A DNA stretch of 64,000 nt. It comes from Patescibacteria group bacterium (GTDB lineage: Bacteria; Patescibacteriota; Minisyncoccia; Phycocordibacterales; UBA918). Shown one piece after another: positions 47,865-62,405 of the stretch. Position 1 is the stretch's first letter; the number at the start of each line of letters is the position of its first letter. The notes beneath the pieces were generated by a model. The model was not told the origin of the DNA. It did not search any database and was given only the letters and a program-made list of their open reading frames with translations. Location: NCBI GenBank assembly GCA_019752815.1, contig JAIELQ010000006.1, forward strand, positions 1,577 to 65,576. Reading direction: 5' to 3'. A program made the position numbers and the translations under genes.

Positions 47865-48190
47865 AAACAGGGCAGGGAGTTATAGAAGGATATCAAAGAC
47901 ATGATGCAGCACGGAGAAACCGGAGCGCAGTTGCCGCGAAACTTGTCTCGAAAGCGCGGCAGAGAAGTTGTGCAAATGCACAACGGAAATACGTCACGCG
48001 TGTGGCGAGGAGGTAACCTCTTTGCAGTGCCTCACCCAGACGCGATGAAAGGCGTTGTGGTCGAAACGAAGCGGACAAGGGTTTACCAAAAACCCATTCA
48101 AAAGGGTAACTGACGAAGGACAGTGGTTCGCGGGAATCCTCCCGCGACCACGCAATATTCGCTCGTGCCTCGGCACGGGTTTTTTTGATA
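47865..48190 (+). promoter_or_regulatory. structured leader upstream of argS with terminal intrinsic terminator; T-box-like candidate
   Basis: About 320 nt between a promoter-like TTACAA..TATGGT and argS. Contains CAGAGAAG, a T-box-like AGTGGTTCGCGGG pairing with CCCGCGACCAC, then the terminator GTGCCTCGGCACGGG plus T7 at about 48163-48187. Confidence 0.35.
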
Positions 48191-48229
48191 CTAACCCTCG
48201 TGGTAATTATTTGCTATAGTGTGCCTATT

Positions 48230-49996
48230 ATGGAAGCCGTCATTAGAACAGCCGTCGCCGAAGCCCTAGCAACCCTTGGATTACCGCCAAGTGATTTTGT
48301 GATTGAACACCCGGGCGACATCAGTCATGGTGACTATGCCTGTAACGTGGCTATGGTCTCTATGAGGGCACAAGCTGTAGAAGGTACAGAATACACTGGT
48401 AAAAAAATATCAACTTTGGATACATTTACACCTCGAACTCCAACAAGACCAGGTTTTAAGAACCCTAGAGAATTAGCGGTACTAATCAAAGAAAAACTAG
48501 AAGGCCAAATCGAATATGTTGAAAAAATTGAAATTGCCGGTCCAGGATTTATCAATTTTTATTTCACTCGTGATTTCTTTGTGGCTGAAACCAATCGGAT
48601 TATAAACCTAGGTGAAAACTGGGGGCGAAATGATTCGTGGGCAGATAAAAAAGTAGTGGTGGAATACACTGATCCCAATCCGTTTAAAGAGTTTCATATT
48701 GGACACTTGTTTACCAACGCAGTTGGGGAAAGTATTGCCCGACTATTTATGATGGCCGGAGCGGATGTGCGGCGAGTATGTTACCAGGGAGATGTTGGAC
48801 TTCATGTTGCTCACGCTATTTGGGGGATGCAAAAATTGGGCATGACTTCTGAGAGTGATTTTACGGCAAAAGATTTGGGGCGAGCCTACGCTACCGGAGC
48901 CACTGCTTATAAAGAAAATGAGTCAGCTAAAACAGAAATCACTGTACTTAATAAAGTTATTTATGAACGAAGTGACGAGAGAGTTAACGCACTCTACGAC
49001 GCAGGGCGAAGAGTTTCCCTGGCTTACTTTGAAACGATCTACAAGTTGGTAGGTACCGAATTCTCAGAATATTTTTTTGAGAGTGAAGCTGCGGGCGTTG
49101 GGAAGGAATTGGTTTTAAATAATCCAGAAATATTTCCCTTAAGTGATGGGGCACATATATTTGAAGGAGAAAAATACGGATTGCATACTCGAGTATTTTT
49201 GAACAAGCTTGGTTTGCCGACGTATGAAGCAAAAGAGCTCGCACTCGCCAAACTCAAAAATGACCGACTCGGCGGGTATGATCATTCTGTTATTTCAACA
49301 GCGAATGAAATTAGCGAATACTTCAAAGTTTTAAAAAAAGCTATGGGATTTGTTTATCCTGAACTCGCGGCTAAAACAGAACACATTGGACATGGTATGG
49401 TGAAGCTAGCTACCGGTAAGATGTCATCTCGAACGGGAGATGTGATTTCAGCAATAGATTTTATTGCTGATGTGGCCCAGTCAGCTCACGACAAAATTAC
49501 TGAAACAGGTATGACAATAGCGTCACCGGAGCTCTCAAATGATATTGCGATTGGAGCTATTAAATACGCCACATTGCGAGGGAGTATTTTGCAGGATTCA
49601 GTGTTTGATAAGGAGCGAGCACTTAGTTTTGAAGGTGATTCTGGTCCATACCTACAATATACGCATGCCCGTATCTGTAGTGTGCTCGATAAAGCACGTG
49701 CAGCCGGCATTGTTCCTTCACTGACACCTGCACCAACAGAGCCATATCTCATTGAAAAAACTTTGTACCGATTTGAAGAGGTGGTACAAGCAGCTCTCGA
49801 TGACCGTGCCCCACACAAGGTGGTAGGGTATCTCACCGAACTCGCTGGCGCTTTTAACACTTTCTACGCTCATGAAAAAATGGCTGATGCTACAGATAAA
49901 TTCGCACCGTACAAATGTCTCCTTGCCCAGGCAGTGGCGACCACCCTTAAAAACGGTTTGTTTATTCTTGCCATTAAAGCTCCAGAACGATTGTAG
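48230..49996 (+). CDS. argS: arginyl-tRNA synthetase (start at the MEAVIRT Met)
   Basis: N-terminal add-1 domain (HPGDISHGDYACNVAM), HIGH motif FHIGHLF, KMSSR-like motif GKMSSRTGD, anticodon-binding C-terminus. Confidence 0.8.
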   Translation: MEAVIRTAVAEALATLGLPPSDFVIEHPGDISHGDYACNVAMVSMRAQAVEGTEYTGKKISTLDTFTPRTPTRPGFKNPRELAVLIKEKLEGQIEYVEKIEIAGPGFINFYFTRDFFVAETNRIINLGENWGRNDSWADKKVVVEYTDPNPFKEFHIGHLFTNAVGESIARLFMMAGADVRRVCYQGDVGLHVAHAIWGMQKLGMTSESDFTAKDLGRAYATGATAYKENESAKTEITVLNKVIYERSDERVNALYDAGRRVSLAYFETIYKLVGTEFSEYFFESEAAGVGKELVLNNPEIFPLSDGAHIFEGEKYGLHTRVFLNKLGLPTYEAKELALAKLKNDRLGGYDHSVISTANEISEYFKVLKKAMGFVYPELAAKTEHIGHGMVKLATGKMSSRTGDVISAIDFIADVAQSAHDKITETGMTIASPELSNDIAIGAIKYATLRGSILQDSVFDKERALSFEGDSGPYLQYTHARICSVLDKARAAGIVPSLTPAPTEPYLIEKTLYRFEEVVQAALDDRAPHKVVGYLTELAGAFNTFYAHEKMADATDKFAPYKCLLAQAVATTLKNGLFILAIKAPERL

Positions 49997-50206
49997 TCTG
50001 ATTTGACGGTTGGCATATTCTTAGTATGCTTGTCGGTAGGTTGTTCGGTACGGAACACGCAAACAGAAAATCCATCGAGAGGGGCAGATGTTCGTAAAAA
50101 TATTCTTGGAGCTCTATCAGCCGACCTGGCAAGAAGTTCTCTCTAGAGAAGCAGGGAGACGCCATCGCGAGGATTGGCTCTGCCATTTGGGTTTTAACAG
50201 GTGAAT

Positions 50207-50238
50207 AAAAAGCGCGGCAGGTCCGCGCTTTTCGCTTT
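50207..50238 (+). terminator. intrinsic terminator about 210 nt downstream of argS
   Basis: AAAAGCGCGGC-aggt-CCGCGCTTTTCGCTTT. Confidence 0.65.
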
Positions 50239-50335
50239 CTAGCAGGAACCCATTTTTGTGGTACTATAAAAAAGCTGGTCTGATACATCAGTTTTATTAG
50301 TATGTCTGATACACATACGTAACTCATTTTTATAT

Positions 50336-53300
50336 ATGAACAAAGCCCATGGACGGGAGAATGACTCAGTTGCAGTTGTTCCCGAAGTTGATAAATCAGA
50401 AGTAGCGATTCGTGAAGAAGCTATCCAAGCATTTTGGCTGGAGCACGATATTTTTAATAAAAGTATAGAAAAACCAGCCGGTGAAGATCCTGCCGGCCAG
50501 TTTACCTTTTACGATGGTCCGCCGTTTGCGACGGGTACCCCACACTACGGACATATTTTAGCGAGTACGATAAAAGACACGGTACCACGATTTTGGACCA
50601 TGAACGGCCTTCGGGTTAATCGCACCTGGGGGTGGGATTGCCATGGGTTGCCACTCGAGAACCTCATTGAGAAAAAACTAGGTTTAGCAACTAAACGTGA
50701 CATCGAGGAATACGGTGTGAAGAATTTTAATGAAGCTGCTCGTAGTACCGTGATGGAATATGCCGACTACTGGAAAATGGCTATTCCACGTATGGGACGC
50801 TGGGCCGATATGGAGAACGACTACAAAACCATGGATAGCACCTACACCGAAAGTGTGTGGTGGGTGTTTTCAGAACTCCATAAAAAGGGATTAGTGTTTG
50901 AAGGTTTTAAAACCATGCACTTGTGTCCGCGCTGTGGTACGACCTTAAGTAACTTTGAAGTTAACCAAGGCTATAAAGACATCAAAGACATCGCGGTGAC
51001 CGTTAAACTACCTCTTCTTGATGACGCTGGCAACGTAACCGATACGTCACTCCTAGTTTGGACAACCACACCGTGGACACTGCCCGGGAATATGGCGGCG
51101 GCGGTTCATCATGAGCTGGATTATGTAAAAGTGAAAGTGTCTGCAGATGGAGTTTCGGAATACTATATTTTAGCGAAAGGCCGACTGTCACAATTAGGAG
51201 AAGCGGCTTATGAAACGGTTGAGGAAATGAAAGGTGCTGCCTTGGTTGGGAAATCGTATCAGTCACCATTTAACTACCTGCACACCCAAGACTTTGATAA
51301 AACAAACGCTTGGAAAATTTGGCATGCAGATTATGTAGAGGTGGGAACCGAAGGTACGGGAGCAGTGCATATTGCACCAGCCTATGGGGACGACGACATG
51401 AAATTGGCTCAAGCTAATAACGTTCCAATTATTCATCACGTCGACACGGCCGGGCATTTTGTGTCGTTTGTGACCGATTTTGCGGGGCGATTAGTTAAGC
51501 CAAAAGACGATGATACTGCTGGTGTAGATCACAAAGACACCGACATTGAAATCCTTAAAGCCCTCCAAGCAGCCGGTAAAGTATTTAAAAAAGAAAACAT
51601 CACCCACAGCTACCCGCACTGTTGGCGTTGTGATACACCACTACTTAACTACGCGACGACCTCGTGGTTTGTGAACGTACCAAAAATCAAAGACGAACTA
51701 ATTGCCGCGAACAATGCGGTGAACTGGATTCCGGATCATGTCGGTAGTAACCGGTTTGGTAATTGGCTCGAGGGGGCGCGTGATTGGGCAGTATCACGTC
51801 AGCGGTACTGGGGAGCACCACTACCAATTTGGAAAAACCCAAAAACGGGCGATTTCAAAGTGTTTGGCTCATTAGCAGAATTGCAACAGTATGTGCCAAA
51901 AAGTGGCAATACATACTTTGTGATGCGCCATGCCGAGGCAGCGAGTAATCTGACTGGAATCATTGACGCCATCGCTGACGAAAACAATCCGCTGACTGAA
52001 GCCGGTATAACTCAGTGTAAAGAAGCAGCCGAAACATTGCGTACCAAGGGTATTACCCATATCGTCCATTCGGGTATGCAGCGTACGCGCGAAACGGCGC
52101 TCGCTATTGCCCGTGAACTTGGTCTGCCTGAAACTGCCGTATCAGCTGATGCGCGCATAATTGAATTACAAACCGGTGCTGCGTACGAAGGTAAAACCTG
52201 GGATGAATACAATGCTAATTACAGTAGTGAAGAAGAGAAATTTACCAAAGTAATTCCTGGTGTTGAAAATCGCTACGACCTGATTAAACGAGCAGGGGAG
52301 TTTCTGTATGATTTTGACGCTGCTCATCAAAACGAAACGGTATTAATTGTGGGGCACGCCAGTTCAACGTTTGCATTGCGGTGTGTGGCCGAGGGAGCTG
52401 AACATAAACGAGTGATCGAGCTTAAAAAACAAGGCTACTACAAAAATGCTGAGGTGCATGCGCTCCCATTTACCCCGGTACCACACAACGATTTATACGC
52501 CTTGGATTACCACCGACCGTATATTGATGATATTAAGTTGGTTGATACTGACGGTACCCAATTAGTTCGGGTGCCTGACGTGTTTGATTGTTGGTTTGAA
52601 TCGGGCTCAATGCCGTACGCGCAACATCACTTCATGGGGCAAAACCCTGAGCAGTTTTTAGCGACCCAATTCCCGGCGCAGTTTATTGCCGAGGGTCTCG
52701 ACCAAACGCGGGGTTGGTTCTATTCACTTATTGTGCTTGGCACTGCGTTATTTGGAAAAGCACCGTTTGAAAATGTGATTGTAAACGGACTAGCACTCGC
52801 TGAAGATGGTAAAAAAATGAGTAAGTCCCTCAAGAATTATCCTGATCCAATGGAGCTGGTAGATAGAGTAGGGGCAGACGCTGTTCGCTACTATATGCTC
52901 ACTGCACCAATTGTACGTGGCGAGGATTTGAACTTTAGTGAGAAAGAAGTCACTGAATTGCAACGTAAAAATATCGGTCGTCTCCACAACGTGCTCGCCA
53001 TGTATGAGATGTACGCCAACGGCACTGATGCGTCCGGAGCCTCAGATACGATTTTAGATCGCTGGATATTGGCGCGACTCAACCAATTAATTGCTGATAC
53101 TACAGCTGGGTACAAATCATACGAACTTGATAAAGCCACCCGGCCGCTGGCTGATTTTATTGATGATGTATCGGTCTGGTACCTCCGTCGCAGTCGGGAA
53201 CGTCTCAAGTCAGATGATAGTGAGGATAAAACTAAAGTCCTCGGCACCTTACGATTTATTTTACGAGAGCTGGCTAAAGTAATGGCTCCAGCCATGCCGT

Positions 53301-53893
53301 TTTATGCAGAGTATCTGTATCGGGCTGTTCGCGCAGAATCAGAACCTGAAAGTGTACACCTCACCGCTTGGCCTACAGGGGATACTGTCGACACTGGGTT
53401 AATCGAAAGTATGGGTGTAGTCCGCATGTTTGTTACAGCGGGGCTAGAAGCGCGAACCAAAGCCAACATCAAAGTACGCCAACCATTGTCAGAATTATTT
53501 ATTCGAACGACGATGTTGCCTGACACCGAACTGCTTGATCTCATCAAAGATGAGTTAAATGTAAAACAAATTAGTTTAGATGGGGTAGAGAGCGGAGCTG
53601 ATACCACCTCAAAAATCACCCTCATAACTGAGTTAACGCCCGAGCTGATTGCGGAAGGGGCAGTACGTGAAGTAATGCGAGCGGTGCAGGATATGCGTAA
53701 AGATGCTGGTTTGGAACCTAGCGATCGGATTGTGCTCACGATTGATACAAACGAGAATGGTCAAAATGCTGTCAACACCCATAAGGAAAGTTTGCTTAAA
53801 ACGGTCGGTGCTACAGATATTGTATTTGATGTCACCTTTGGAACTAGCGTTACGAGTGGAGACTATAGTTTTGTTTGTGCAATTTCGCAATAA
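50336..53893 (+). CDS. ileS: isoleucyl-tRNA synthetase (type 2) carrying an inserted histidine-phosphatase (PGM-like) domain
   Basis: HYGH motif (FATGTPHYGHIL), KMSKS (KMSKSLKNY), editing domain. A roughly 190-aa insertion (about nt 51905-52490) between WGAPLPIW and the HRPYID/VPDVFDCWFESGSMPY blocks shows the RHAEA...RTRETA...IVGHAS histidine-phosphatase signature. Confidence 0.85.
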   Translation: MNKAHGRENDSVAVVPEVDKSEVAIREEAIQAFWLEHDIFNKSIEKPAGEDPAGQFTFYDGPPFATGTPHYGHILASTIKDTVPRFWTMNGLRVNRTWGWDCHGLPLENLIEKKLGLATKRDIEEYGVKNFNEAARSTVMEYADYWKMAIPRMGRWADMENDYKTMDSTYTESVWWVFSELHKKGLVFEGFKTMHLCPRCGTTLSNFEVNQGYKDIKDIAVTVKLPLLDDAGNVTDTSLLVWTTTPWTLPGNMAAAVHHELDYVKVKVSADGVSEYYILAKGRLSQLGEAAYETVEEMKGAALVGKSYQSPFNYLHTQDFDKTNAWKIWHADYVEVGTEGTGAVHIAPAYGDDDMKLAQANNVPIIHHVDTAGHFVSFVTDFAGRLVKPKDDDTAGVDHKDTDIEILKALQAAGKVFKKENITHSYPHCWRCDTPLLNYATTSWFVNVPKIKDELIAANNAVNWIPDHVGSNRFGNWLEGARDWAVSRQRYWGAPLPIWKNPKTGDFKVFGSLAELQQYVPKSGNTYFVMRHAEAASNLTGIIDAIADENNPLTEAGITQCKEAAETLRTKGITHIVHSGMQRTRETALAIARELGLPETAVSADARIIELQTGAAYEGKTWDEYNANYSSEEEKFTKVIPGVENRYDLIKRAGEFLYDFDAAHQNETVLIVGHASSTFALRCVAEGAEHKRVIELKKQGYYKNAEVHALPFTPVPHNDLYALDYHRPYIDDIKLVDTDGTQLVRVPDVFDCWFESGSMPYAQHHFMGQNPEQFLATQFPAQFIAEGLDQTRGWFYSLIVLGTALFGKAPFENVIVNGLALAEDGKKMSKSLKNYPDPMELVDRVGADAVRYYMLTAPIVRGEDLNFSEKEVTELQRKNIGRLHNVLAMYEMYANGTDASGASDTILDRWILARLNQLIADTTAGYKSYELDKATRPLADFIDDVSVWYLRRSRERLKSDDSEDKTKVLGTLRFILRELAKVMAPAMPFYAEYLYRAVRAESEPESVHLTAWPTGDTVDTGLIESMGVVRMFVTAGLEARTKANIKVRQPLSELFIRTTMLPDTELLDLIKDELNVKQISLDGVESGADTTSKITLITELTPELIAEGAVREVMRAVQDMRKDAGLEPSDRIVLTIDTNENGQNAVNTHKESLLKTVGATDIVFDVTFGTSVTSGDYSFVCAISQ

Positions 53894-53982
53894 TATTTTG
53901 CTCGTCATCTTTCAAGTAATCAACTAGTGTGTTAAAAATCGATGAAATACTAGGTGAGAAAGTCTGGGAGACTTTCGCAAGA

Positions 53983-54023
53983 GGTTACCAGCTTTTTTTC
54001 TAAAATAGCGATAACCTGAACAG
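53983..54023. repeat. family-A palindromic element, 3' of ileS
   Basis: GGTTACCAGCTTTTTTTCTAAAATAGCGATAACCTGAACAG. Preceded by the hairpin GAAAGTCTGGGAGACTTTC. Confidence 0.55.
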
Positions 54024-54099
54024 CTTTTGTAAAAAGAACAAGGAAAAGTCAGCCCCCCATGGGAAACAAACAATAAAATCTACATATGAATTTTCCAGT

Positions 54100-54684
54100 A
54101 TGAGCTATCAAACTTATATAACAAATGCAGTTATTGTAGGTAGTTTTGACAGTAACACTGCAGACAAATCATACCTCCTCTTTACCCGCGATGCCGGGAT
54201 GATTTATGCGTCTGCACGCAGTGTGCGTGAAGAGCGGAGTCGGCAACGATTTGCGCTTCAGGATTTTAGTCGTATTACGGTTTCACTTATTAAAGGCAAA
54301 ACGGGTTGGCGCATTGGCAGTGTACAGTCGGAAGGCAATTATTTTGTAGAGGCAAACGACCGGGCGGTGCGAGGGAGTATTGTACGTATTTGCAAACTAC
54401 TGCGTCGCTTTGTAGCTGGCGAAGAACCACATCCTGATTTGTACGAAGAAATAGTAGCGGGACTCGAACATCTGGTTAACCCGACTCTGCCTAATCGTAA
54501 TTTAATTGAGGAGATTATTCTGGCGCGAGTATTGTATCGTCTCGGGTATATTGCGAGTGCCAGTGATATTGCACCGGTGCTTGATACTGACCTTTCAACC
54601 TTGTTCACAACTGAATTGAAAGATACGTTGTTGGCTCGATTGAAAACAATAACTACTAAGGCTACTACCGCGAGTCACCTTTAA
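54100..54684 (+). CDS. recO: DNA repair protein RecO-like
   Basis: N-terminal OB-fold pattern (NAVIVGSFDSNTADKSYLLFTRDAGMIYASARSVREERSR) and RecO-like length. Confidence 0.45.
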   Translation: MSYQTYITNAVIVGSFDSNTADKSYLLFTRDAGMIYASARSVREERSRQRFALQDFSRITVSLIKGKTGWRIGSVQSEGNYFVEANDRAVRGSIVRICKLLRRFVAGEEPHPDLYEEIVAGLEHLVNPTLPNRNLIEEIILARVLYRLGYIASASDIAPVLDTDLSTLFTTELKDTLLARLKTITTKATTASHL

Positions 54685-54809
54685 GACCTTCGTAAACGAC
54701 ACACTTCTTTGTTGTCCAGCGTAAAATATTCCTCATCGTACTAAAAAGTACGACTCGTAATATTTTACTTGCACGCCTCGAATTGTGCTCATTTACATAG
54801 GTCTTAATT

Positions 54810-56789
54810 TTGAGAAATGATATACTAGTAATCACCATGGCATTACTAAAAGACCAAGCTCAAATAGATGAAATGCGTCGCCGTTTGTATGAGCGGGGTG
54901 GAAGCGTGCAGCCTAATGAACGACATGGTTTGACGCCAATTGAACAAACTCCCCAAACAACCTGGCCGGGCCAAAAAACAGTCCCGGATCGGACTCCATT
55001 AACTGACCATCGGGCAGAGGAGCTTGATGAACCAATGCTCACATTGCATGAAGAAGTGGTAAAGAAAAAAGCGCGTTATTCGTACCGCAGTATTATCTTA
55101 TTAGGCACATTAGGATTGTTTTTGGTAACGGTTCTATTTTCGACTCTGTATCTCATGTTTGGCAACAGTCAAATATCTAATGACAATATTAGTATTGCGA
55201 TTAACGCACCGTTAACTATCGGCGGTGGGGAGGTAATGGATATTCAGGTATCAGTTACAAATCAAAACAAAGTCCCCATTGAATCTGCTGTTTTGATTAT
55301 TAACTATCCCTCAGGTACCAAATCAATTGATACTCCAGCCCGCGACCTCTACGAAGAGCGCGTAACGCTGAACCGAATCAATGCCGGTGAAGCAATTAAC
55401 ATTCCCCTTAAAGCCGTAATGTATGGCGAAGAAAATCAAGAACGACAAATCAAAGCCACGATTGAGTATCGTTTAACAGATTCAAATGGAACGTTTTATA
55501 AAGAGAGTGATCCGCTCACGTTTAAAATTAGCTCATCGCCAGTCGTAATTCGAGTTGAATCAACCAAAAAAGTTTCGGCTGGACAAGATGTGGAAATTAA
55601 GCTGACGGTTCAGTCGAATGCCTCAACGCCAATCAAGGATTTGCTCATCACTGCTAATTATCCTGTTAATTTTGACTACAGTAGCTCTAATCCAACGCCA
55701 GACTTTCGTGAAAATGCCTGGTTAATCAAAGAGCTTTTGCCGGAAAAGTCAGCTACTATTGTATTGCGGGGGGCAATTATAGGTAAACAAGCAGAGGAGT
55801 TCCAGCTGCAGTTTTCTGCCGGTACACCACAACAAGACAACCAATTTATAATTGGGTCAGTGTTAGCCAACGCCACTACTGATTTTGTGATTGAGCAACC
55901 GTTCATTGATGTTGGAATCGGTGTAAATAGTTTTTCAACAGAAGTCGTAACACTACCAACTGGGCAGAACACCCTGGTTGAAGTAACAGTACAAAATACC
56001 TTAGATCAAACACTCTATGACATGGCGGTTGAAGTAGGGATTAAAGGAAATATTTTAGTCCGCGAAAATGTCCAAGTTACCAGAGGATTTTATGATTCAA
56101 CCAAAGACGTCATCAGATTTGATCCTTCAGGAGATAGGAGTCTGGCTACCGTTGCACCAGGAGCTACTAAAAAGTTTTCCTTTACTTTGAGACCAGGTGA
56201 TCAAACATCAACCCCTTCATATAACCTAACAGCCAATGCATATGCGCGGCGAGTGAACGAATCAAGTGCCACTGAGCAACTAGTGGGTACTGCAAAAACT
56301 GAAGTTAAATTTACCTCATCAGTGGCCGTTGGTCGTACCGTTGCCCGGAATGTTCCCGGCTTTGTGGATGCTGGACCAATTCCGCCAGCCCCCGATACCA
56401 AGACTACGTATACGGTTACCCTTAATGCGAGTGCGGGTGGTAATGATGTGACCGGAGCAGTTCTAACGACGTCGTTGCCACAGTATGTCAGTTGGGAGAA
56501 TTTGAGTCTCGGTGATGGTACGCTCGCGTTTAACCCAGTGAGCAAAGAAATTACCTGGACAGTGGGAGAAATAAAGGCTGGCTCTAAAAAATCAACGACC
56601 TTCCAAGTCGGGCTCTTGCCAAGTCAGAACCAAATTGGTACAACTCCTGCAGTGATTGGAACCCAACGTTTCCGCGCCACTGACCGATTCACAAACGAAG
56701 TCATCCGAGCCGAAGCGCCACCCGCAAGTTCAGAGTTAGGACTAGAATCCGGCTTTGAAGAACAAAACGGTGTAGTAACGCGTCCATAA
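54810..56789 (+). CDS. large membrane-anchored extracytoplasmic protein (beta-rich; CARDB/DUF11-like repeats)
   Basis: 659 aa; about 90-aa cytoplasmic N-terminus, one TM (IILLGTLGLFLVTVLFSTLYLMF), then repeated beta-strand modules. Confidence 0.4.
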   Translation: MRNDILVITMALLKDQAQIDEMRRRLYERGGSVQPNERHGLTPIEQTPQTTWPGQKTVPDRTPLTDHRAEELDEPMLTLHEEVVKKKARYSYRSIILLGTLGLFLVTVLFSTLYLMFGNSQISNDNISIAINAPLTIGGGEVMDIQVSVTNQNKVPIESAVLIINYPSGTKSIDTPARDLYEERVTLNRINAGEAINIPLKAVMYGEENQERQIKATIEYRLTDSNGTFYKESDPLTFKISSSPVVIRVESTKKVSAGQDVEIKLTVQSNASTPIKDLLITANYPVNFDYSSSNPTPDFRENAWLIKELLPEKSATIVLRGAIIGKQAEEFQLQFSAGTPQQDNQFIIGSVLANATTDFVIEQPFIDVGIGVNSFSTEVVTLPTGQNTLVEVTVQNTLDQTLYDMAVEVGIKGNILVRENVQVTRGFYDSTKDVIRFDPSGDRSLATVAPGATKKFSFTLRPGDQTSTPSYNLTANAYARRVNESSATEQLVGTAKTEVKFTSSVAVGRTVARNVPGFVDAGPIPPAPDTKTTYTVTLNASAGGNDVTGAVLTTSLPQYVSWENLSLGDGTLAFNPVSKEITWTVGEIKAGSKKSTTFQVGLLPSQNQIGTTPAVIGTQRFRATDRFTNEVIRAEAPPASSELGLESGFEEQNGVVTRP

Positions 56790-56813
56790 TCACTTACTAA
56801 TTAACTTTACCGT

Positions 56814-58211
56814 ATGACAAATCCTGACAGTACACAAAACAAAATGGAAAAAATCACCGCACTCTGCAAGCGTCGCGGGTTTGTGTTTGCGGGTAGTGAA
56901 ATCTACGGCGGATTTGTCGGTTCGTTTGATTATGGTCCGTATGGGGTAGAGCTCGCAAACAATATTAAAGCTGCGTGGTGGGAGGCAATGGTACAACATG
57001 AACGCAATATTGTAGGTTTGGATTCCGCTATTGTGACTCATCCAAAAGTATGGGAAGCATCAGGTCACGTGGGTGGTTTTTCCGACCCCATGGTTGAATG
57101 TAAAGAATGTAACACACGGTCACGAGCTGATCATTTGCTCGAAGAGCTCGATGTGTTTGCAGATGAAAAAATGACCATTGAAGAAATCAATACTATTTTT
57201 GATGCAAATCGAGATAAGCTGGTGTGTCCAAAGTGTGGTTCCAAGAATTTTGGAGTTGTCCGGAAATTTAATCTTTTGGCACAAACAAACCTCGGTAATT
57301 TTTCTGAGGACTGGAGTAAAGAACCAGCATATTTGCGGGGAGAAACTTGTCAGGGAATTTATATCAACTTCAAAAATGTCCTGGACACAACACGGGTAAA
57401 GGTGCCTTTTGGGATTGCCCAAATAGGGAAGGCATTCCGAAATGAAATTGCTCCCCGACAATACATCTTCCGCAAACGTGAGTTCGAGCAAATGGAGATG
57501 CAAATGTTTGTAGCGCCGGCAGAAGAAATGTCAGTCTATGATATATGGAAAGCCAAACGCATGCAGTATTACATCGACATGGGCTTCAAGCCAGAAAATC
57601 TTCGATTCCATGAACATGAGAATCTCGTATTTTATGCCAAAGCAGCGTTTGATATTGAGTATAATTTTCCATTTGGTTTTAAAGAATTAGAGGGTGTTCA
57701 TGCTCGGGGAAATTATGACTTAACCCAGCATCAAACATTCTCAGGGGTATCAATGGAATATACCGATCCATACACCAATGAAAAATACATTCCACATGTA
57801 GTTGAAACTTCGGTTGGTTTAGATCGTACATTTTTGGCTGTTATGACTGAGTTCTATGATGAGGACACTATCGGAGAAGAGTCTCGCATTGTACTTCGTC
57901 TACCCAAAAAACTAGCACCAATCAAGGTGGCTGTTTTCCCGTTATTGCGCAACCGTCCTGAGTTAGTGCAAAAGGCTGAAGAAGTATTTGCCTTAGTATC
58001 AAAAGAAATGCGGGCTGAGTTTGACGATAATGGAAATGTCGGTAAACGCTATCGCCGCCAAGATGAAATTGGCACACCTCACTGTGTGACTATCGATTTT
58101 GATACTCTCGGTGAAAATCCAGAATTACTCGATACTGTTACGGTCCGTAACCGCGACACTGGCGCCCAAGAACGAATCGCCATTGCAGAACTTGTAAACT
58201 ACCTCAAATAG
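56814..58211 (+). CDS. glyQS: glycyl-tRNA synthetase, alpha2 (class II, eukaryote/archaeal-like) type
   Basis: N-terminus GFVFAGSEIYGGFVGSFDYGPYG is characteristic of GlyRS; class II motifs. Confidence 0.85.
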   Translation: MTNPDSTQNKMEKITALCKRRGFVFAGSEIYGGFVGSFDYGPYGVELANNIKAAWWEAMVQHERNIVGLDSAIVTHPKVWEASGHVGGFSDPMVECKECNTRSRADHLLEELDVFADEKMTIEEINTIFDANRDKLVCPKCGSKNFGVVRKFNLLAQTNLGNFSEDWSKEPAYLRGETCQGIYINFKNVLDTTRVKVPFGIAQIGKAFRNEIAPRQYIFRKREFEQMEMQMFVAPAEEMSVYDIWKAKRMQYYIDMGFKPENLRFHEHENLVFYAKAAFDIEYNFPFGFKELEGVHARGNYDLTQHQTFSGVSMEYTDPYTNEKYIPHVVETSVGLDRTFLAVMTEFYDEDTIGEESRIVLRLPKKLAPIKVAVFPLLRNRPELVQKAEEVFALVSKEMRAEFDDNGNVGKRYRRQDEIGTPHCVTIDFDTLGENPELLDTVTVRNRDTGAQERIAIAELVNYLK

Positions 58212-58231
58212 GGTACTGTATCTCCCAGACC

Positions 58232-58771
58232 TTGTTTTGGAGATTGCTGATGCCAAAAAGAAAAGCCTTTGGCAAGGACGAGGCCATCATAGCCTTTGTG
58301 TCTGGCCAAATTCGAAAAACCCAAGCGACATTTGGAGTGACGGTCGCTGAAATGGCTCGAGTCGCTGGTTATGAACGGTCAGTTTTTCATCGCGTTCTTC
58401 GCGGTGATAGTATCTGTAACATCGAAGCGCTACATCGGCTGTCCGTTCACTACAACCTGCCGATGGACTACTGGTTTCCACCTCGGGAAGGGATTGCAGC
58501 TCCGCTGCTACCAGTTCCTCAAGTTGTTCCTGTGCAGGACAATGCAATACCAACGATGCTGCCTTTTACTCGAAAGATGATACGGCAGATGAATATCATG
58601 TCTGTGTCTGACAAGCGTATACTGCTCGTCCTTGCCTTGAAACATGCGCAGCAGTTGCAAGGGCTCGTTTTGCTCGCCAAGGCACTTGAACAAGTAAATC
58701 CTGAGACAAAAAAGAAGATTGTCATGGCAGTACAAAAGCTCGCAGCGGTCAAAAAACAACCGGTCCCATAA
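58232..58771 (+). CDS. hypothetical HTH-domain protein
   Basis: Probable HTH FGVTVAEMARVAGYERSVFHRVLRG; start may be at MPKRKAF. Confidence 0.35.
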   Translation: MFWRLLMPKRKAFGKDEAIIAFVSGQIRKTQATFGVTVAEMARVAGYERSVFHRVLRGDSICNIEALHRLSVHYNLPMDYWFPPREGIAAPLLPVPQVVPVQDNAIPTMLPFTRKMIRQMNIMSVSDKRILLVLALKHAQQLQGLVLLAKALEQVNPETKKKIVMAVQKLAAVKKQPVP

Positions 58772-58821
58772 AGGGACCGGCTACTTTTTTATTTTGCTAG
58801 CTATGGTACTGTATTTAGACT

Positions 58822-60264
58822 ATGTTAGACAAAAACCCCCGCTATATCACCACTACCTTGCCGTACGTTAACGCTGAGCCACATATTGGTTTCGGCTATG
58901 AAATAGTAGTAGCCGATACGCTCGCACGTTACTGGCGCCTCATGGGGCACGAGGTATTTTTTACCACCGGTACTGATGAACACGGACAAAAAATTGCTGA
59001 AAAAGCCGACAGCGAAGGCATCCCACGCCAAGAGTATGTTGATACTTATGCAGCCAAATTTGCCGATTTAAAGACCTCTCTTAATATCTCAAACGATAAT
59101 TTTATTCGCACGACAGATGCTTCACACAAAGCAGCTGCTCAGGCTATTTGGAATAAATGTTTAGAAAAAGGCGATATCTACAAAAAAACCTACAAAGGTC
59201 TCTACTGTGTGGGGGACGAGATGTTTTTGCGTGATAGTGATTTAGTACATGGTCGGTGTCCTAACCACCCGAATGTAGATCCAGTGGAGATTGAAGAAGA
59301 GAACTACTTTTTCAAACTCTCAAACTATCAAGATAAACTCATTGATTATTTGAACGATCCTGCCCGTACCTTGTCTGAATCATATCGTGCCTGGGCGCTA
59401 CAGTTTGTTTCGGCCGGTCTTGAGGATCTCAGTATCTCACGTAGTAAAAAACGAATGGACTGGGGGATTCCCGTGCCGGGGGACGATGACCACGTTATGT
59501 ACGTATGGTTTGACGCGTTAACCAACTACATCAGTACGCTTGGCTGGCCTGATGACGCTGACGGTAACTTTAAAAAATTCTGGGTAGATGGCGAAACTGT
59601 CCAGCTGGCGGGTAAGGACCAGGTACGCTTCCAATCAATTATTTTTCAGGCAATGTTACTGTCCGCTGATGTTCCGCAAACAGATACCATTTGCTACCAC
59701 GGATTTATTAATAGTGGGGGACAGAAAATGAGCAAGAGTCTCGGTAACGTTATTTCACCTGCGGAATTAGTGGCCCGCTACGGTACTGATGCAACCCGTT
59801 ATTTACTCCTGCGTCATGTACACCCGTTTGATGATACTGATATTACTTGGGAACGGCTTGACGAATGGTACACCGCCGATTTGGTAAATGGGTTAGGGAA
59901 TCTAGTTGCTCGAGTGATGAAAATGGCCGAGACTCATTTAGATGAACCTATTGCTCGACCAGAAGCATTCGCGTTTTCATCTGAGTATGCGCAAGCAATT
60001 GAAGCATATAACTTGCAGTCAGCAACCGATTACATTTGGAGTCGCATTGGTGCTCTTGATGAACGAATTACAGCCGAAGAGCCATTTAAGTTAGTGAAAA
60101 CAGATAAACCAAAAGCCCAGATTATCATTCAGGAATTAGCTGTTGAAGTGTACGCAATCGGTAGGTTACTCAATCCGTTTATGCCCGCAACGAGTGAAAT
60201 TATTAAAGCTGCTGTTCTCGAAAACAAAAAACCAGACAACCTCTTTAACCGGCTCGAGTCTTAA
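58822..60264 (+). CDS. metG: methionyl-tRNA synthetase, short form lacking the C-terminal tRNA-binding domain
   Basis: HIGH-class motif (NAEPHIGFGYEIVVAD), KMSKS (KMSKSLGNVI); 480 aa. Confidence 0.9.
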   Translation: MLDKNPRYITTTLPYVNAEPHIGFGYEIVVADTLARYWRLMGHEVFFTTGTDEHGQKIAEKADSEGIPRQEYVDTYAAKFADLKTSLNISNDNFIRTTDASHKAAAQAIWNKCLEKGDIYKKTYKGLYCVGDEMFLRDSDLVHGRCPNHPNVDPVEIEEENYFFKLSNYQDKLIDYLNDPARTLSESYRAWALQFVSAGLEDLSISRSKKRMDWGIPVPGDDDHVMYVWFDALTNYISTLGWPDDADGNFKKFWVDGETVQLAGKDQVRFQSIIFQAMLLSADVPQTDTICYHGFINSGGQKMSKSLGNVISPAELVARYGTDATRYLLLRHVHPFDDTDITWERLDEWYTADLVNGLGNLVARVMKMAETHLDEPIARPEAFAFSSEYAQAIEAYNLQSATDYIWSRIGALDERITAEEPFKLVKTDKPKAQIIIQELAVEVYAIGRLLNPFMPATSEIIKAAVLENKKPDNLFNRLES

Positions 60265-60901: not shown

Positions 60902-61024
60902 ATGGATAATGTATCTGAAAAAAGAAATACATATACTTGGAACGATGATATCCGTCGTTTAGCTGAGAAGGTGGGTAAAGATATTCGCGAAAGTGAGCGT
61001 CGGGGTTTTAGCTGGGAAGAATAA
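60902..61024 (+). CDS. small (40 aa) antitoxin-like protein overlapping the PIN gene start (TAATG)
   Basis: MDNVSEKRNTYTWNDDIRRLAEKVGKDIRESERRGFSWEE; its stop overlaps the downstream ATG. Confidence 0.3.
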   Translation: MDNVSEKRNTYTWNDDIRRLAEKVGKDIRESERRGFSWEE

Positions 61025-61551
61025 TGAAACTAAAGATACCAGAACGTGGTTTCGTATTGCTTGATACTAACGTCCTTATTGATACTTCAAAATACCCCGA
61101 TAATTTTTTAGTGCTACATAATGAATTAAAAAGACTACATATTAGTTCAGTTGTTGAAAGTACAATTCGCTTCGAGTTTTTACGGGGATTGCGTAACGTT
61201 TCAGATGGTGAAAAATTGTTGACGGGACTTTGCGGGGAGAATCATTTAGTTTTAAATCCTGATAAGGATACTTTTGATAGAGCCTTAAAAATATCACAAA
61301 TTTATGTGCGAAATGATAACAAACAAGTAAAGATTGCTGATGTTATTATTGCAGCGCAAATTGCTAAATATGCAAAAGGGGCTGGTAACGCAAACGAGCT
61401 ACTCTTGGCAACACAAAATCACAAAGACTTCCCGCCAGTTTTATTTGAGAGGGTAGACGAAATGCTGATAACAATTCCAGACGGAACTATTAAAATAATT
61501 GGGTTTTATAGGTTTAAATCAGATAGATTTAATGAGTTGCAAGTAATATGA
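61024..61551 (+). CDS. PIN-domain protein (VapC-like toxin candidate)
   Basis: VLLDTNVLID N-terminal PIN motif with acidic residues downstream. Confidence 0.55.
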   Translation: MKLKIPERGFVLLDTNVLIDTSKYPDNFLVLHNELKRLHISSVVESTIRFEFLRGLRNVSDGEKLLTGLCGENHLVLNPDKDTFDRALKISQIYVRNDNKQVKIADVIIAAQIAKYAKGAGNANELLLATQNHKDFPPVLFERVDEMLITIPDGTIKIIGFYRFKSDRFNELQVI

Positions 61552-62405
61552 AATACATTGACACTCATGCGCATTTGAATTTGTCGGCTTTTGCTCCTGA
61601 TGTTGAGGCAGTGATTGAGAAGTGTAATCAGGATGGGGTGGGGGTGATAAATATTGGTACCAAGGAATCAACCAGTGCGCGGGCGGTTGAGTTGGCGTTA
61701 ACCAATCCTCATCTCTACGCGATTGTGGGACTTCATCCCATCCAAACCGTTCCGCAATCACATGATGAAGATGAGTTGGGTGAGGGCGGAATGCCCTTTG
61801 TGTCAAAAGGCGAGACCTTTAATACTGATTTTTACCGCAATCTAATTGCGACGAGTAACGGTAAGGTTGTGGGTATTGGTGAATGTGGATTTGATTATTA
61901 TCACACTGATCCTTCAACCTATATTACTCAAGAGGTGGTCTTTATTGAACAAATTAAACTAGCTAATGAACTGCAGTTGCCATTGATGATTCATACCCGT
62001 GGACCAAAACCGGGGGAGAGTAGTCCTACCGGACGCAGTGTCTATGCTGATGTGCATGCAGTGTTAAAACAGTACGCCAAAGTCCCATTTAACGTTCACT
62101 TTTATGCTGGAACGCTCGATGAAGCCAAGGCTTTTTTTGATATTGGCGGGACCATTTCATTTACCGGTGTCATAACGTTTGCCAAAGTATACGAGGATAT
62201 TGTGCGTGCAGTGCCGCTCGACCGTATCCACGCAGAAACTGATTGTCCGTATGTAGCACCAATACCGTATCGTGGGGCCCGTTGCGAACCCTGGATGGTT
62301 CAAGAAGTGTATAAAAAAATCGCCCAAATACGGGATGAGGACACAGATGTTGTGAGAGAGCAGCTATTAGAAAATGCTCACCGTCTGTATACAGTAAAAA
62401 AGTAA
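61548..62405 (+). CDS. tatD: TatD-family metal-dependent hydrolase/DNase
   Basis: IDTHAHL ... GECGFDYYH ... TD TIM-barrel motifs. Confidence 0.85.
   Translation: MKYIDTHAHLNLSAFAPDVEAVIEKCNQDGVGVINIGTKESTSARAVELALTNPHLYAIVGLHPIQTVPQSHDEDELGEGGMPFVSKGETFNTDFYRNLIATSNGKVVGIGECGFDYYHTDPSTYITQEVVFIEQIKLANELQLPLMIHTRGPKPGESSPTGRSVYADVHAVLKQYAKVPFNVHFYAGTLDEAKAFFDIGGTISFTGVITFAKVYEDIVRAVPLDRIHAETDCPYVAPIPYRGARCEPWMVQEVYKKIAQIRDEDTDVVREQLLENAHRLYTVKK

Follow-up and report, generated by a model that had tools for sequence, protein, structure and literature searches.

A histidine-phosphatase domain nested in the type-2 isoleucyl-tRNA synthetase of a Patescibacteria bacterium

The ileS gene and its embedded domain

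The DNA analysed here, called the window throughout, is a stretch of 64,000 nucleotides from a Patescibacteria group bacterium (assembly GCA_019752815.1, contig JAIELQ010000006.1, positions 1,577 to 65,576). Its ileS gene encodes a type-2 isoleucyl-tRNA synthetase (IleRS) in which a histidine-phosphatase domain is nested within the third connective polypeptide (CP3). The gene, the two halves of CP3, the embedded domain with its conserved residues and the connector behind it are located as listed below. Residue conservation was taken from an alignment of 81 full-length homologues, whose inserts share only ~35-40% identity.

50336..53893, + strand: ileS, complete open reading frame (ORF) of a type-2 IleRS with the insertion (1185 aa; identical to NCBI MBY0538243.1)
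51815..51904, + strand: N-terminal half of CP3, PLPIW...GSLAELQQYVPKSG (aa 494-523), leading into the insert
51905..52471, + strand: branch-1 histidine-phosphatase domain (aa 524-712), by Pfam, the envelope of our own hidden Markov model, AlphaFold and Foldseek
51926..51931, + strand: R531-H532 of the RH(G/A) motif, invariant in 80/80 homologues; H532 is the predicted phospho-accepting nucleophile
51947..51949, + strand: N538, asparagine of the phosphate pocket, invariant in 80/80
52082..52084, + strand: R583, second catalytic arginine, in the S..RTRETA motif, invariant in 80/80
52163..52165, + strand: E610, predicted general acid/base, in the D.R..E...G..EG motif, invariant in 80/80
52289..52291, + strand: R652, additional arginine, invariant in 81/81
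52355..52357, + strand: H674, second catalytic histidine, in VLIVGHASS, invariant in 81/81
52472..52501, + strand: connector (T)PVPHNDLYA, consensus F.P.PHN..YE, conserved in embedded forms
52502..52585, + strand: C-terminal half of CP3, LDYHRPYIDDIKLVDTDGTQLVRVPDVF, returning to the Rossmann fold (DCWFESG)

Apart from the insert, the host protein has the features of an ordinary synthetase. With 875.3 bits, the whole protein exceeds the cut-off of the NCBIfam equivalog for ileS (TIGR00392, 621.4 bits), and Pfam recognizes tRNA-synt_1 in two parts (residues 30-518 and ~750-877), followed by Anticodon_1 and DUF5915. The class I motifs are present (HYGH at 70, DCWFESG at 751, KMSKS at 827), HYGH, KMSKS and D.WF.SG being invariant among 42 homologues, and the CP1 editing motifs are intact (TTTPWT at 243 and GTGAVHIAPAYGDDD, i.e., GTGAVHIAPAYGDDD, at 340). 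The body aligns end to end with type-2 IleRSs of known structure, from T. thermophilus (1ILE), P. megaterium (IleRS2, 8C8U), yeast (7D5C/8WND) and human (9W01), with E-values of ~1e-186 to 1e-206. It shares with them the Rossmann fold, the CP core, the CP1 editing, CP2, CP3, anticodon-binding and C-terminal domains and the signature motifs, but differs by ~200 extra residues in the middle of CP3 and by the loss of the Thermus-type zinc-knuckle cysteines. No second ileS was found within the 64-kb window. In public databases, MBY0538243.1 and most of its homologues are named “class I tRNA ligase family protein”, and the phosphatase goes unmentioned. This annotation gap touches hundreds of entries, presumably as the insert upsets length and coverage criteria, and leaves the feature invisible to database users under current annotation.

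The insertion site could be placed precisely. Query residues 25-518 align to residues 14-490 of human IARS1 and residues 724-1082 to 498-883, with the same pattern in yeast. Approximately 205 residues thus stand where solved IleRS structures have ~7, which confirms the expectation, voiced in an original prediction made from the letters of the window alone, of a short linker at this position. The replaced linker measures ~7-12 residues in IleRSs without the insert, and the sequence of a close relative without the insert runs ...IGSTKELGVKLK|DLHRPYID... there. In yeast IleRS, CP3 comprises residues 459-526 and the corresponding linker lies at ~491-498 (yeast and Candida IleRS structure papers; PMC7191050, PMC7955072). 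CP3 is a surface element whose topology varies among IleRSs and which binds zinc in Thermus, while the CP2-CP3 linker (ARDW.VSR.RYWG), just upstream of the insertion, lines the pocket for the CCA end of the tRNA (PMC7191050, PMC7955072).

A whole protein of ~190 aa sits between ...GS..EL...K and LD.HRPYID, with junctions that read ...KSG|NTYF... and ...PHN|D(E)..YE. The P.P.W anchor was found in 71 sequences and lies 30-31 residues from the catalytic RH in 67 of them, and 13 residues separate the end of the domain from HRPYID in 86/92; F712 of the connector is invariant. The connector motif F.P.PHN..YE is absent from stand-alone homologues of the domain and from insert-less IleRSs. The CP3 zinc-knuckle cysteines (C..C ... 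C.C) that flank the insert are kept in 29 and lost in 59 of 96 embedded forms, the window protein being among the latter, and are present in insert-less relatives such as L121; the loss of zinc binding seems to follow insertion in most lineages.

The segment singled out by the original prediction (51905-52490) corresponds to aa 524-718 and includes all motifs quoted for it. Where a Pfam match had been expected (about residues 520-720), His_Phos_1 (PF00300) was found at residues 528-697 (E=2.1e-26; 93.2 bits vs a gathering threshold of 21.7), and domain search, PDB alignment, multiple alignment and structure prediction all bear out an in-frame His_Phos insertion in an otherwise normal type-2 IleRS. 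Besides the residues listed above, G557 and S579 are invariant; the glycine of the RHG motif is alanine in the window protein and glycine in 70/80 homologues. The ratio of nonsynonymous to synonymous substitution rates (dN/dS, ω) was usable for the pair L002/L004 only, most pairs being saturated at synonymous sites, and amounts to 0.14 in the insert vs 0.11 in the body of the IleRS. The dN ratio of insert to IleRS body spans ~0.3-1.6. These values indicate that the insert is under purifying selection.

Modelled with its flanks, the insert forms an α/β domain with a mean predicted local distance difference test (pLDDT) score of 86 and a core above 90, in agreement with the proposal that it folds independently. 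In a full-length AlphaFold model, built with close homologues only in the multiple sequence alignment, the predicted TM-score (pTM) reached 0.48 and the catalytic core was modelled with poor confidence, the phosphatase domain being the part predicted best. Foldseek searches against the PDB, which reached probability 1.00 for many solved members, ranked 6S2Q, Rv2419c, PspA, HFP and PhoE best (TM ~0.7, identity 20-25%), with true phosphoglycerate mutases lower. By sequence, the PspA structure 4IJ5 matched the insert with E=6e-8 only. These compact branch-1 phosphatases, i.e., B. stearothermophilus PhoE (1H2E), H. thermophilus PspA (4IJ5), the glucosyl-3-phosphoglycerate phosphatase GpgP (Rv2419c, 4QIH) of M. 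tuberculosis, the mycobacterial hydrolase 6S2Q and the riboflavin-pathway HFP (9MMH), have the same fold, a similar size (~190-210 aa) and the same R-H-N-R-E-H constellation. However, they are free-standing and act on metabolites, whereas the window domain and its relatives are nested in or lie next to class Ia synthetases, and the nested form has a connector motif of its own.

The insert stayed below the cut-off of each curated family. Models of cofactor-dependent phosphoglycerate mutases (dPGM; NF038349, TIGR01258, PRK01295, others) gave 57.7-62.3 vs 225 (archaeal dPGM), 16.1 vs 81.7 and 26.1 vs 316 bits. The alpha-ribazole phosphatase CobC (TIGR03162) model gave 58-63 bits vs 162.9, that of the phosphoserine phosphatase PspA (NF045917) 50-55 bits vs 350 and that of the phosphohistidine phosphatase SixA (TIGR00249) 26 bits vs 74.5. 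Therefore, the insert is, by these sequence models, a distinct His_Phos subfamily. The earlier label “phosphoglycerate-mutase-like” holds at the level of the superfamily only, as the compact, phosphatase-type members are structurally closest.

The architecture is widespread. A relative of the insert with IleRS flanks is encoded by at least 115 species-level Patescibacteria genomes, as a scan with one genome for each GTDB species showed. Their labels include Kaiser-, Nomura-, Adler-, Lloyd-, Zambryski- and Taylorbacteria, Paceibacterota, Parcubacteria and others; some third-party assemblies are labelled “Saccharibacteria”. The same layout recurs in hundreds of metagenomic proteins. Every untruncated locus among 80 independent genome assemblies holds a single stop-free ORF of 1117-1250 aa, and PF00133 and PF00300 occur together in 120/120 of the best protein clusters (65-100% identity; NCBI, JGI, ENA, Logan). 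Hence, there is next to no chance that the feature is an artefact or a selfish element, be it an assembly chimera, a pseudogene or an intein-like insertion: the single ORF recurs in more than 100 independent assemblies, which come from several sources, ω values of ~0.1-0.14 speak against an artefact or pseudogene, and signatures of inteins are lacking. The N-junction has no Cys/Ser, the “HN” of PHN is followed by Asp/Glu and not by Cys/Ser/Thr, and the Pfam scan of the ORF revealed no homing-endonuclease or Hint domain. These data exclude chance, misassembly, a pseudogene and a chimera. Because the IleRS motifs are kept, a second ileS is missing from the window, the catalytic set is invariant and selection is purifying, both activities, aminoacylation and phosphatase, are expected to be functional in the window protein.

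Stand-alone homologues and the origin of the insert

An exhaustive, profile-free search with the insert alone retrieved, besides many full-length IleRSs, proteins of ~190 aa with their own start and no IleRS flanks. Their sources label them Nealsonbacteria or “PhoE”, the JGI name being “broad specificity phosphatase PhoE”. In sister lineages, the gene order is argS, His_Phos, insert-less ileS (931-991 aa) and, further downstream, recO, with intergenic distances of 1-8 nt. An argS gene lies directly upstream of the stand-alone gene in other cases, too, and was confirmed by tblastn in L083. Among 42 stand-alone genes, argS is found within 300 nt upstream in 25 of the 29 with enough upstream sequence; an ileS starts ≤300 nt downstream on the same strand in 26/29, and 2 more are convergent. 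A metagenome scan seeded with the stand-alone proteins added 80 further loci of both kinds. When 113 near-complete ileS genes were compared, 96 had the embedded domain only, 17 an adjacent free copy only, and none had both. The window shows the order of the sister lineages minus the free gene (argS, ileS with the insert, recO, DUF11 protein), and the order argS, ileS, recO, DUF11 is kept across almost all of the 80 genome loci.

The N-junction of the embedded forms, K..GN.YF.(M/L)RHG, mirrors the N terminus of the free proteins, MK(L/F)NN(K/Q)YY.LRHG, and the latter end right after the last strand (GELR.L). This correspondence at both ends indicates that essentially the whole gene is what was inserted, with a new connector of 10 residues added. 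Furthermore, the stand-alone homologue adjoins an insert-less ileS, the two states exclude each other, and there are the fusion and multi-copy cases described below; therefore, the comparison identifies the domain as a synthetase-associated phosphatase captured from the neighbouring gene.

The near-constant geometry of the junctions argues that this capture probably was one insertion event. Against a single event, neighbour-joining trees of the IleRS body and 30 bootstrap replicates need 5-6 state changes, not one. Most stand-alone phosphatases have their nearest relatives among other stand-alone copies, including cases in which the IleRS bodies beside them are of different types. These trees are crude, and displacement of ileS at the locus, or artefacts of distance trees in compositionally heterogeneous genomes, may be the cause of the conflict. 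Two candidates for “excised” inserts with remnants of the connector (P0160 and P0143) were discarded as uninformative, since their contigs are ~1 kb long and one has 1.5x coverage.

Related domains are joined to synthetases in further ways. At L094:3369-5555, one stop-free ORF encodes a complete arginyl-tRNA synthetase (ArgRS; Arg_tRNA_synt_N, tRNA-synt_1d, DALR_1) followed 10 residues later by His_Phos_1, and this end-to-end fusion lies directly upstream of an insert-less ileS. P0218, an IleRS on a 4059-bp ENA contig, has a pair of His_Phos domains. The first occupies the CP3 position known from the window; the other, of a different subtype (RHGETEWN), sits further along CP3, between HRPYID and R.PDV.DCWFESG, which indicates an independent second insertion. 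A valyl-tRNA synthetase (ValRS; P0129, L089:366-3851 = L090) contains four His_Phos_1 domains, one behind the QWF motif in the CP2 region and three in a tandem array behind RQ.WWG..IPVW in CP3, and its complete copies keep the catalytic residues; valS models are the best NCBIfam matches of this incomplete protein, below their cut-offs. Among ten further matches of odd length, 9 are IleRSs and 1 is a His_Phos fused to ATP sulfurylase. In the latter, P0263 with 568 aa, the sulfate adenylyltransferase (ATP sulfurylase) carries at its N-terminal end a His_Phos domain that is related to the insert (E ~1e-12).

Other genes were seen next to argS as well. HAD-family hydrolase genes occupy the argS-ileS gap at L016:3470-4123 and L056:3774-4526, where the IleRS already has an embedded phosphatase, and a divergent additional His_Phos follows argS at L015:2842-3486, though the IleRS there has the embedded domain, too.

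Possible functions of the nested phosphatase

Taking these observations together, we lean towards a bifunctional enzyme, i.e., a functional type-2 IleRS whose CP3 hosts a complete, independently folding and, from its residues, predicted catalytically competent histidine phosphatase. On balance, the link with class Ia synthetases may well be functional, the neighbouring gene having moved into CP3 because tethering beside the synthetase was advantageous. Functional coupling is favoured because the subfamily was joined repeatedly, by four genetic routes, to ArgRS, IleRS and ValRS. Members of the His_Phos superfamily work by an established phospho-histidine mechanism. In the window protein, H532 would attack a phosphomonoester held by R531, R583, N538 and H674, and E610 would protonate the leaving group before water hydrolyses the phospho-histidine. 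The substrate would be nucleotide-like and made by or presented at the synthetase, such as a 3′-phosphorylated acceptor end or an adenosine phosphate, and aminoacylation and editing themselves would be unchanged. That this standard chemistry is directed to a nucleotide-type phosphomonoester at or near the acceptor-end pocket is put forward tentatively, as a possibility of rather modest probability.

Several observations weigh against a functional link of this kind. The structures closest to the domain belong to enzymes of small metabolites rather than RNA, and the full-length model, with its pTM of 0.48, is too poor for placing the phosphatase site relative to the acceptor-end pocket. The ArgRS and the methionyl-tRNA synthetase (MetRS) encoded in the window have no phosphatase domain; only ileS has it. 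The free form evidently works in sister lineages, so that tethering is not obligatory, gene order in slowly rearranging genomes could be historical rather than functional, and the HAD phosphatase genes that fill the argS-ileS slot at two loci (L016, L056) are unrelated to the insert. The four-domain ValRS, a case that calls for caution, comes from a contig covered only ~2x, and its fourth copy is interrupted by an in-frame TAA, with the rest of the domain following in frame; this stop may be a sequencing error or the mark of a decaying gene. As a clue to RNA binding, basic charge was considered and rejected: the median pI is 9.7 in stand-alone vs 6.1 in embedded domains, but it tracks genome GC, and in low-GC genomes the embedded domains reach 9.8 and their IleRS bodies 9.2.

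The domain could instead be a broad-specificity, PhoE-like housekeeping phosphatase mechanistically unconnected with aminoacylation, for which CP3 was merely a permissive loop of the neighbouring essential gene, giving constitutive co-expression in a minimal genome. We regard this as a possible but less probable explanation. It agrees with the closest folds, which are small-metabolite phosphatases, with the name PhoE given by JGI to the stand-alone forms, with the structural variability of CP3 among IleRSs, with the existence of a free form that presumably works alone, with the HAD phosphatases found between argS and ileS in some loci and with the fusion of a related domain to ATP sulfurylase, which is no synthetase. 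Against it stand the repeated joins to class Ia synthetases by different routes (operon, ArgRS fusion, CP3 insertion, a distinct second His_Phos at another CP3 site, CP2 and CP3 of ValRS), and the conserved, rigid-looking connector F.P.PHN..YE with its invariant F712 suggests a defined docking geometry. A more specific proposal, which appears unlikely, is the repair of tRNA 3′ ends. The phosphatase would then be a third station for the CCA end beside the synthetic and editing sites and would strip a blocking 3′-(pyro)phosphate before charging; the block would be installed by toxSAS-type (toxic small alarmone synthetase) toxins or left after tRNase cleavage and opening of the cyclic phosphate. 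CP3 does follow the CP2-CP3 linker that forms the CCA-end pocket, the partners are tRNA-binding class Ia enzymes that aminoacylate A76, and pyrophosphorylation of the 3′-CCA end is a documented toxin mechanism (bioRxiv 10.1101/2021.04.30.441581, PMC11559606). However, no superfamily member with RNA-end activity came up among the structural neighbours, the helical cap is typical of enzymes for small substrates, the basic charge of the stand-alone forms is an artefact of genome composition, nothing shows that such toxins act on these organisms, and only some synthetases have the domain. Were it true, it would amount to synthetase-coupled tRNA-end repair or immunity, by an enzyme that first was an operon partner of ArgRS and IleRS and then came to lie inside IleRS and, in some lineages, ArgRS and ValRS.

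Less probable still is the removal of by-products, in which hydrolysis of pyrophosphate (PPi) or AMP would pull the aminoacylation reaction forward, possibly in place of a missing soluble pyrophosphatase. All hosts are adenylate-forming, PPi-releasing enzymes, as is the ATP sulfurylase to which the related domain is fused, a PPi-releasing adenylyl-transferase, and no ppa-like gene was detected in 1.5 Mb of candidate phyla radiation (CPR) sequence, which comprised small local regions only and was searched with an approximate E. coli query. On the other hand, His_Phos enzymes are phosphomonoesterases, and pyrophosphatase activity is not known as a property of the family; hydrolysis of AMP would waste a scarce nucleotide in organisms unable to make purines, and the ATP-sulfurylase fusion is a distant match (E ~1e-12). 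At the lowest end of these probabilities stands a non-catalytic elaboration of CP3, in which the phosphatase fold would serve only structure, tRNA binding or ligand-sensing regulation. The loss of the zinc-knuckle cysteines in 59 of 96 embedded forms would fit an insert that substitutes for them structurally, but six catalytic residues, including E610, are invariant in 80+ sequences despite ~35% identity of the domains, and pseudo-enzymes normally lose their catalytic residues. For the resistance to pseudomonic acid (mupirocin) suggested in the original prediction, we found no specific support. The MupA and MupB models (NF000257, NF000258) gave 647 and 704 bits vs a cut-off of 1900, and mupirocin insensitivity is a general trait of type-2 IleRS, not of the insert.

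Compared with known systems, host and guest are each ordinary on their own, a type-2 IleRS and a member of Pfam His_Phos_1 that fits none of the curated subfamilies. That synthetases can carry further enzymatic domains, nested or appended, is already known, and the present sequences are public, with automatic Pfam matches. A precedent for an IleRS with an extra enzymatic domain is the NCBIfam entry NF040702 (ileS_w_GNAT), in which the addition is a GNAT and not a His_Phos domain. The window protein matches only its IleRS parts (296 bits vs a cut-off of 1999), and our literature search found no paper on such GNAT-containing IleRSs. The CP1 editing domain of class Ia enzymes is likewise hydrolytic, nested in a connective polypeptide of the Rossmann fold and at the service of the tRNA 3′ end; it demonstrates that a catalytic domain nested in the CP region can be accommodated and put to use. 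But CP1 is universal, ancient and cleaves aminoacyl esters, whereas the His_Phos insert is lineage-specific, located in CP3 and, by its chemistry, would remove phosphate. The RNase H/acid phosphatase of the Rv2228c type (NF005567) links a CobC/PhoE-like His_Phos covalently to an enzyme of nucleic acids. With the insert, this model scores 52-56 bits over its phosphatase half (cut-off 326); it describes an end-to-end fusion with another partner enzyme, unlike the nested arrangement in the window.

Aminoacyl-tRNA synthetases are among the most conserved enzymes and, to our knowledge, it is rare that a whole lineage gains another intact catalytic centre within the catalytic body of a synthetase. 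The operon, the ArgRS fusion, the CP3 insertion across a class-level clade, the multi-copy cases and the invariant residues together would tie a phosphatase activity to tRNA charging in Patescibacteria. As far as we know, textbook aminoacylation has no phosphatase step, which raises the concrete and testable question which phosphorylated species needs clearing beside a class Ia synthetase. The finding should surprise synthetase specialists and is directly testable; it also offers a clean natural case of a gene moved into the middle of the next gene, with both states extant. No description of an aminoacyl-tRNA synthetase with a histidine-phosphatase domain was found in full-text literature searches, in AARS Online or in Chaliotis et al., and literature searches for the CP3 phosphatase, its operon-partner precursor and the ArgRS and ValRS variants returned none.

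Gene neighbourhood in the window

The two conserved neighbours of ileS have the following positions:

48185..49996, + strand: argS, arginyl-tRNA synthetase, conserved upstream neighbour
54100..54684, + strand: recO-like gene, conserved downstream neighbour and synteny anchor

The spacer between argS and ileS (49997-50335) measures 339 nt, unusually long for a compact genome. It contains no relic of a stand-alone phosphatase gene and matches no Rfam family and no T-box. By eye, a GC-rich hairpin followed by a T run (AAAAAGCGCGGCAGGTCCGCGCTTTTCGCTTTC) and a -10-like element, TGGTACTATAAA, can be seen, while a scan of the spacer called no terminator and one weak promoter-like site only.

The stretch from 48185 to 60264 is rich in synthetase genes, with argS, ileS, a class II synthetase with an HGTP anticodon domain (56814-58211) and metG (58822-60264). 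Between them lie recO, a DUF11 surface-type protein (54810-56789) and a helix-turn-helix (HTH) protein. Further downstream, the genes for a PIN-domain protein (61024-61551) and a TatD-family nuclease (61548-62405) share 4 nt, at the end of the former and the start of the latter.

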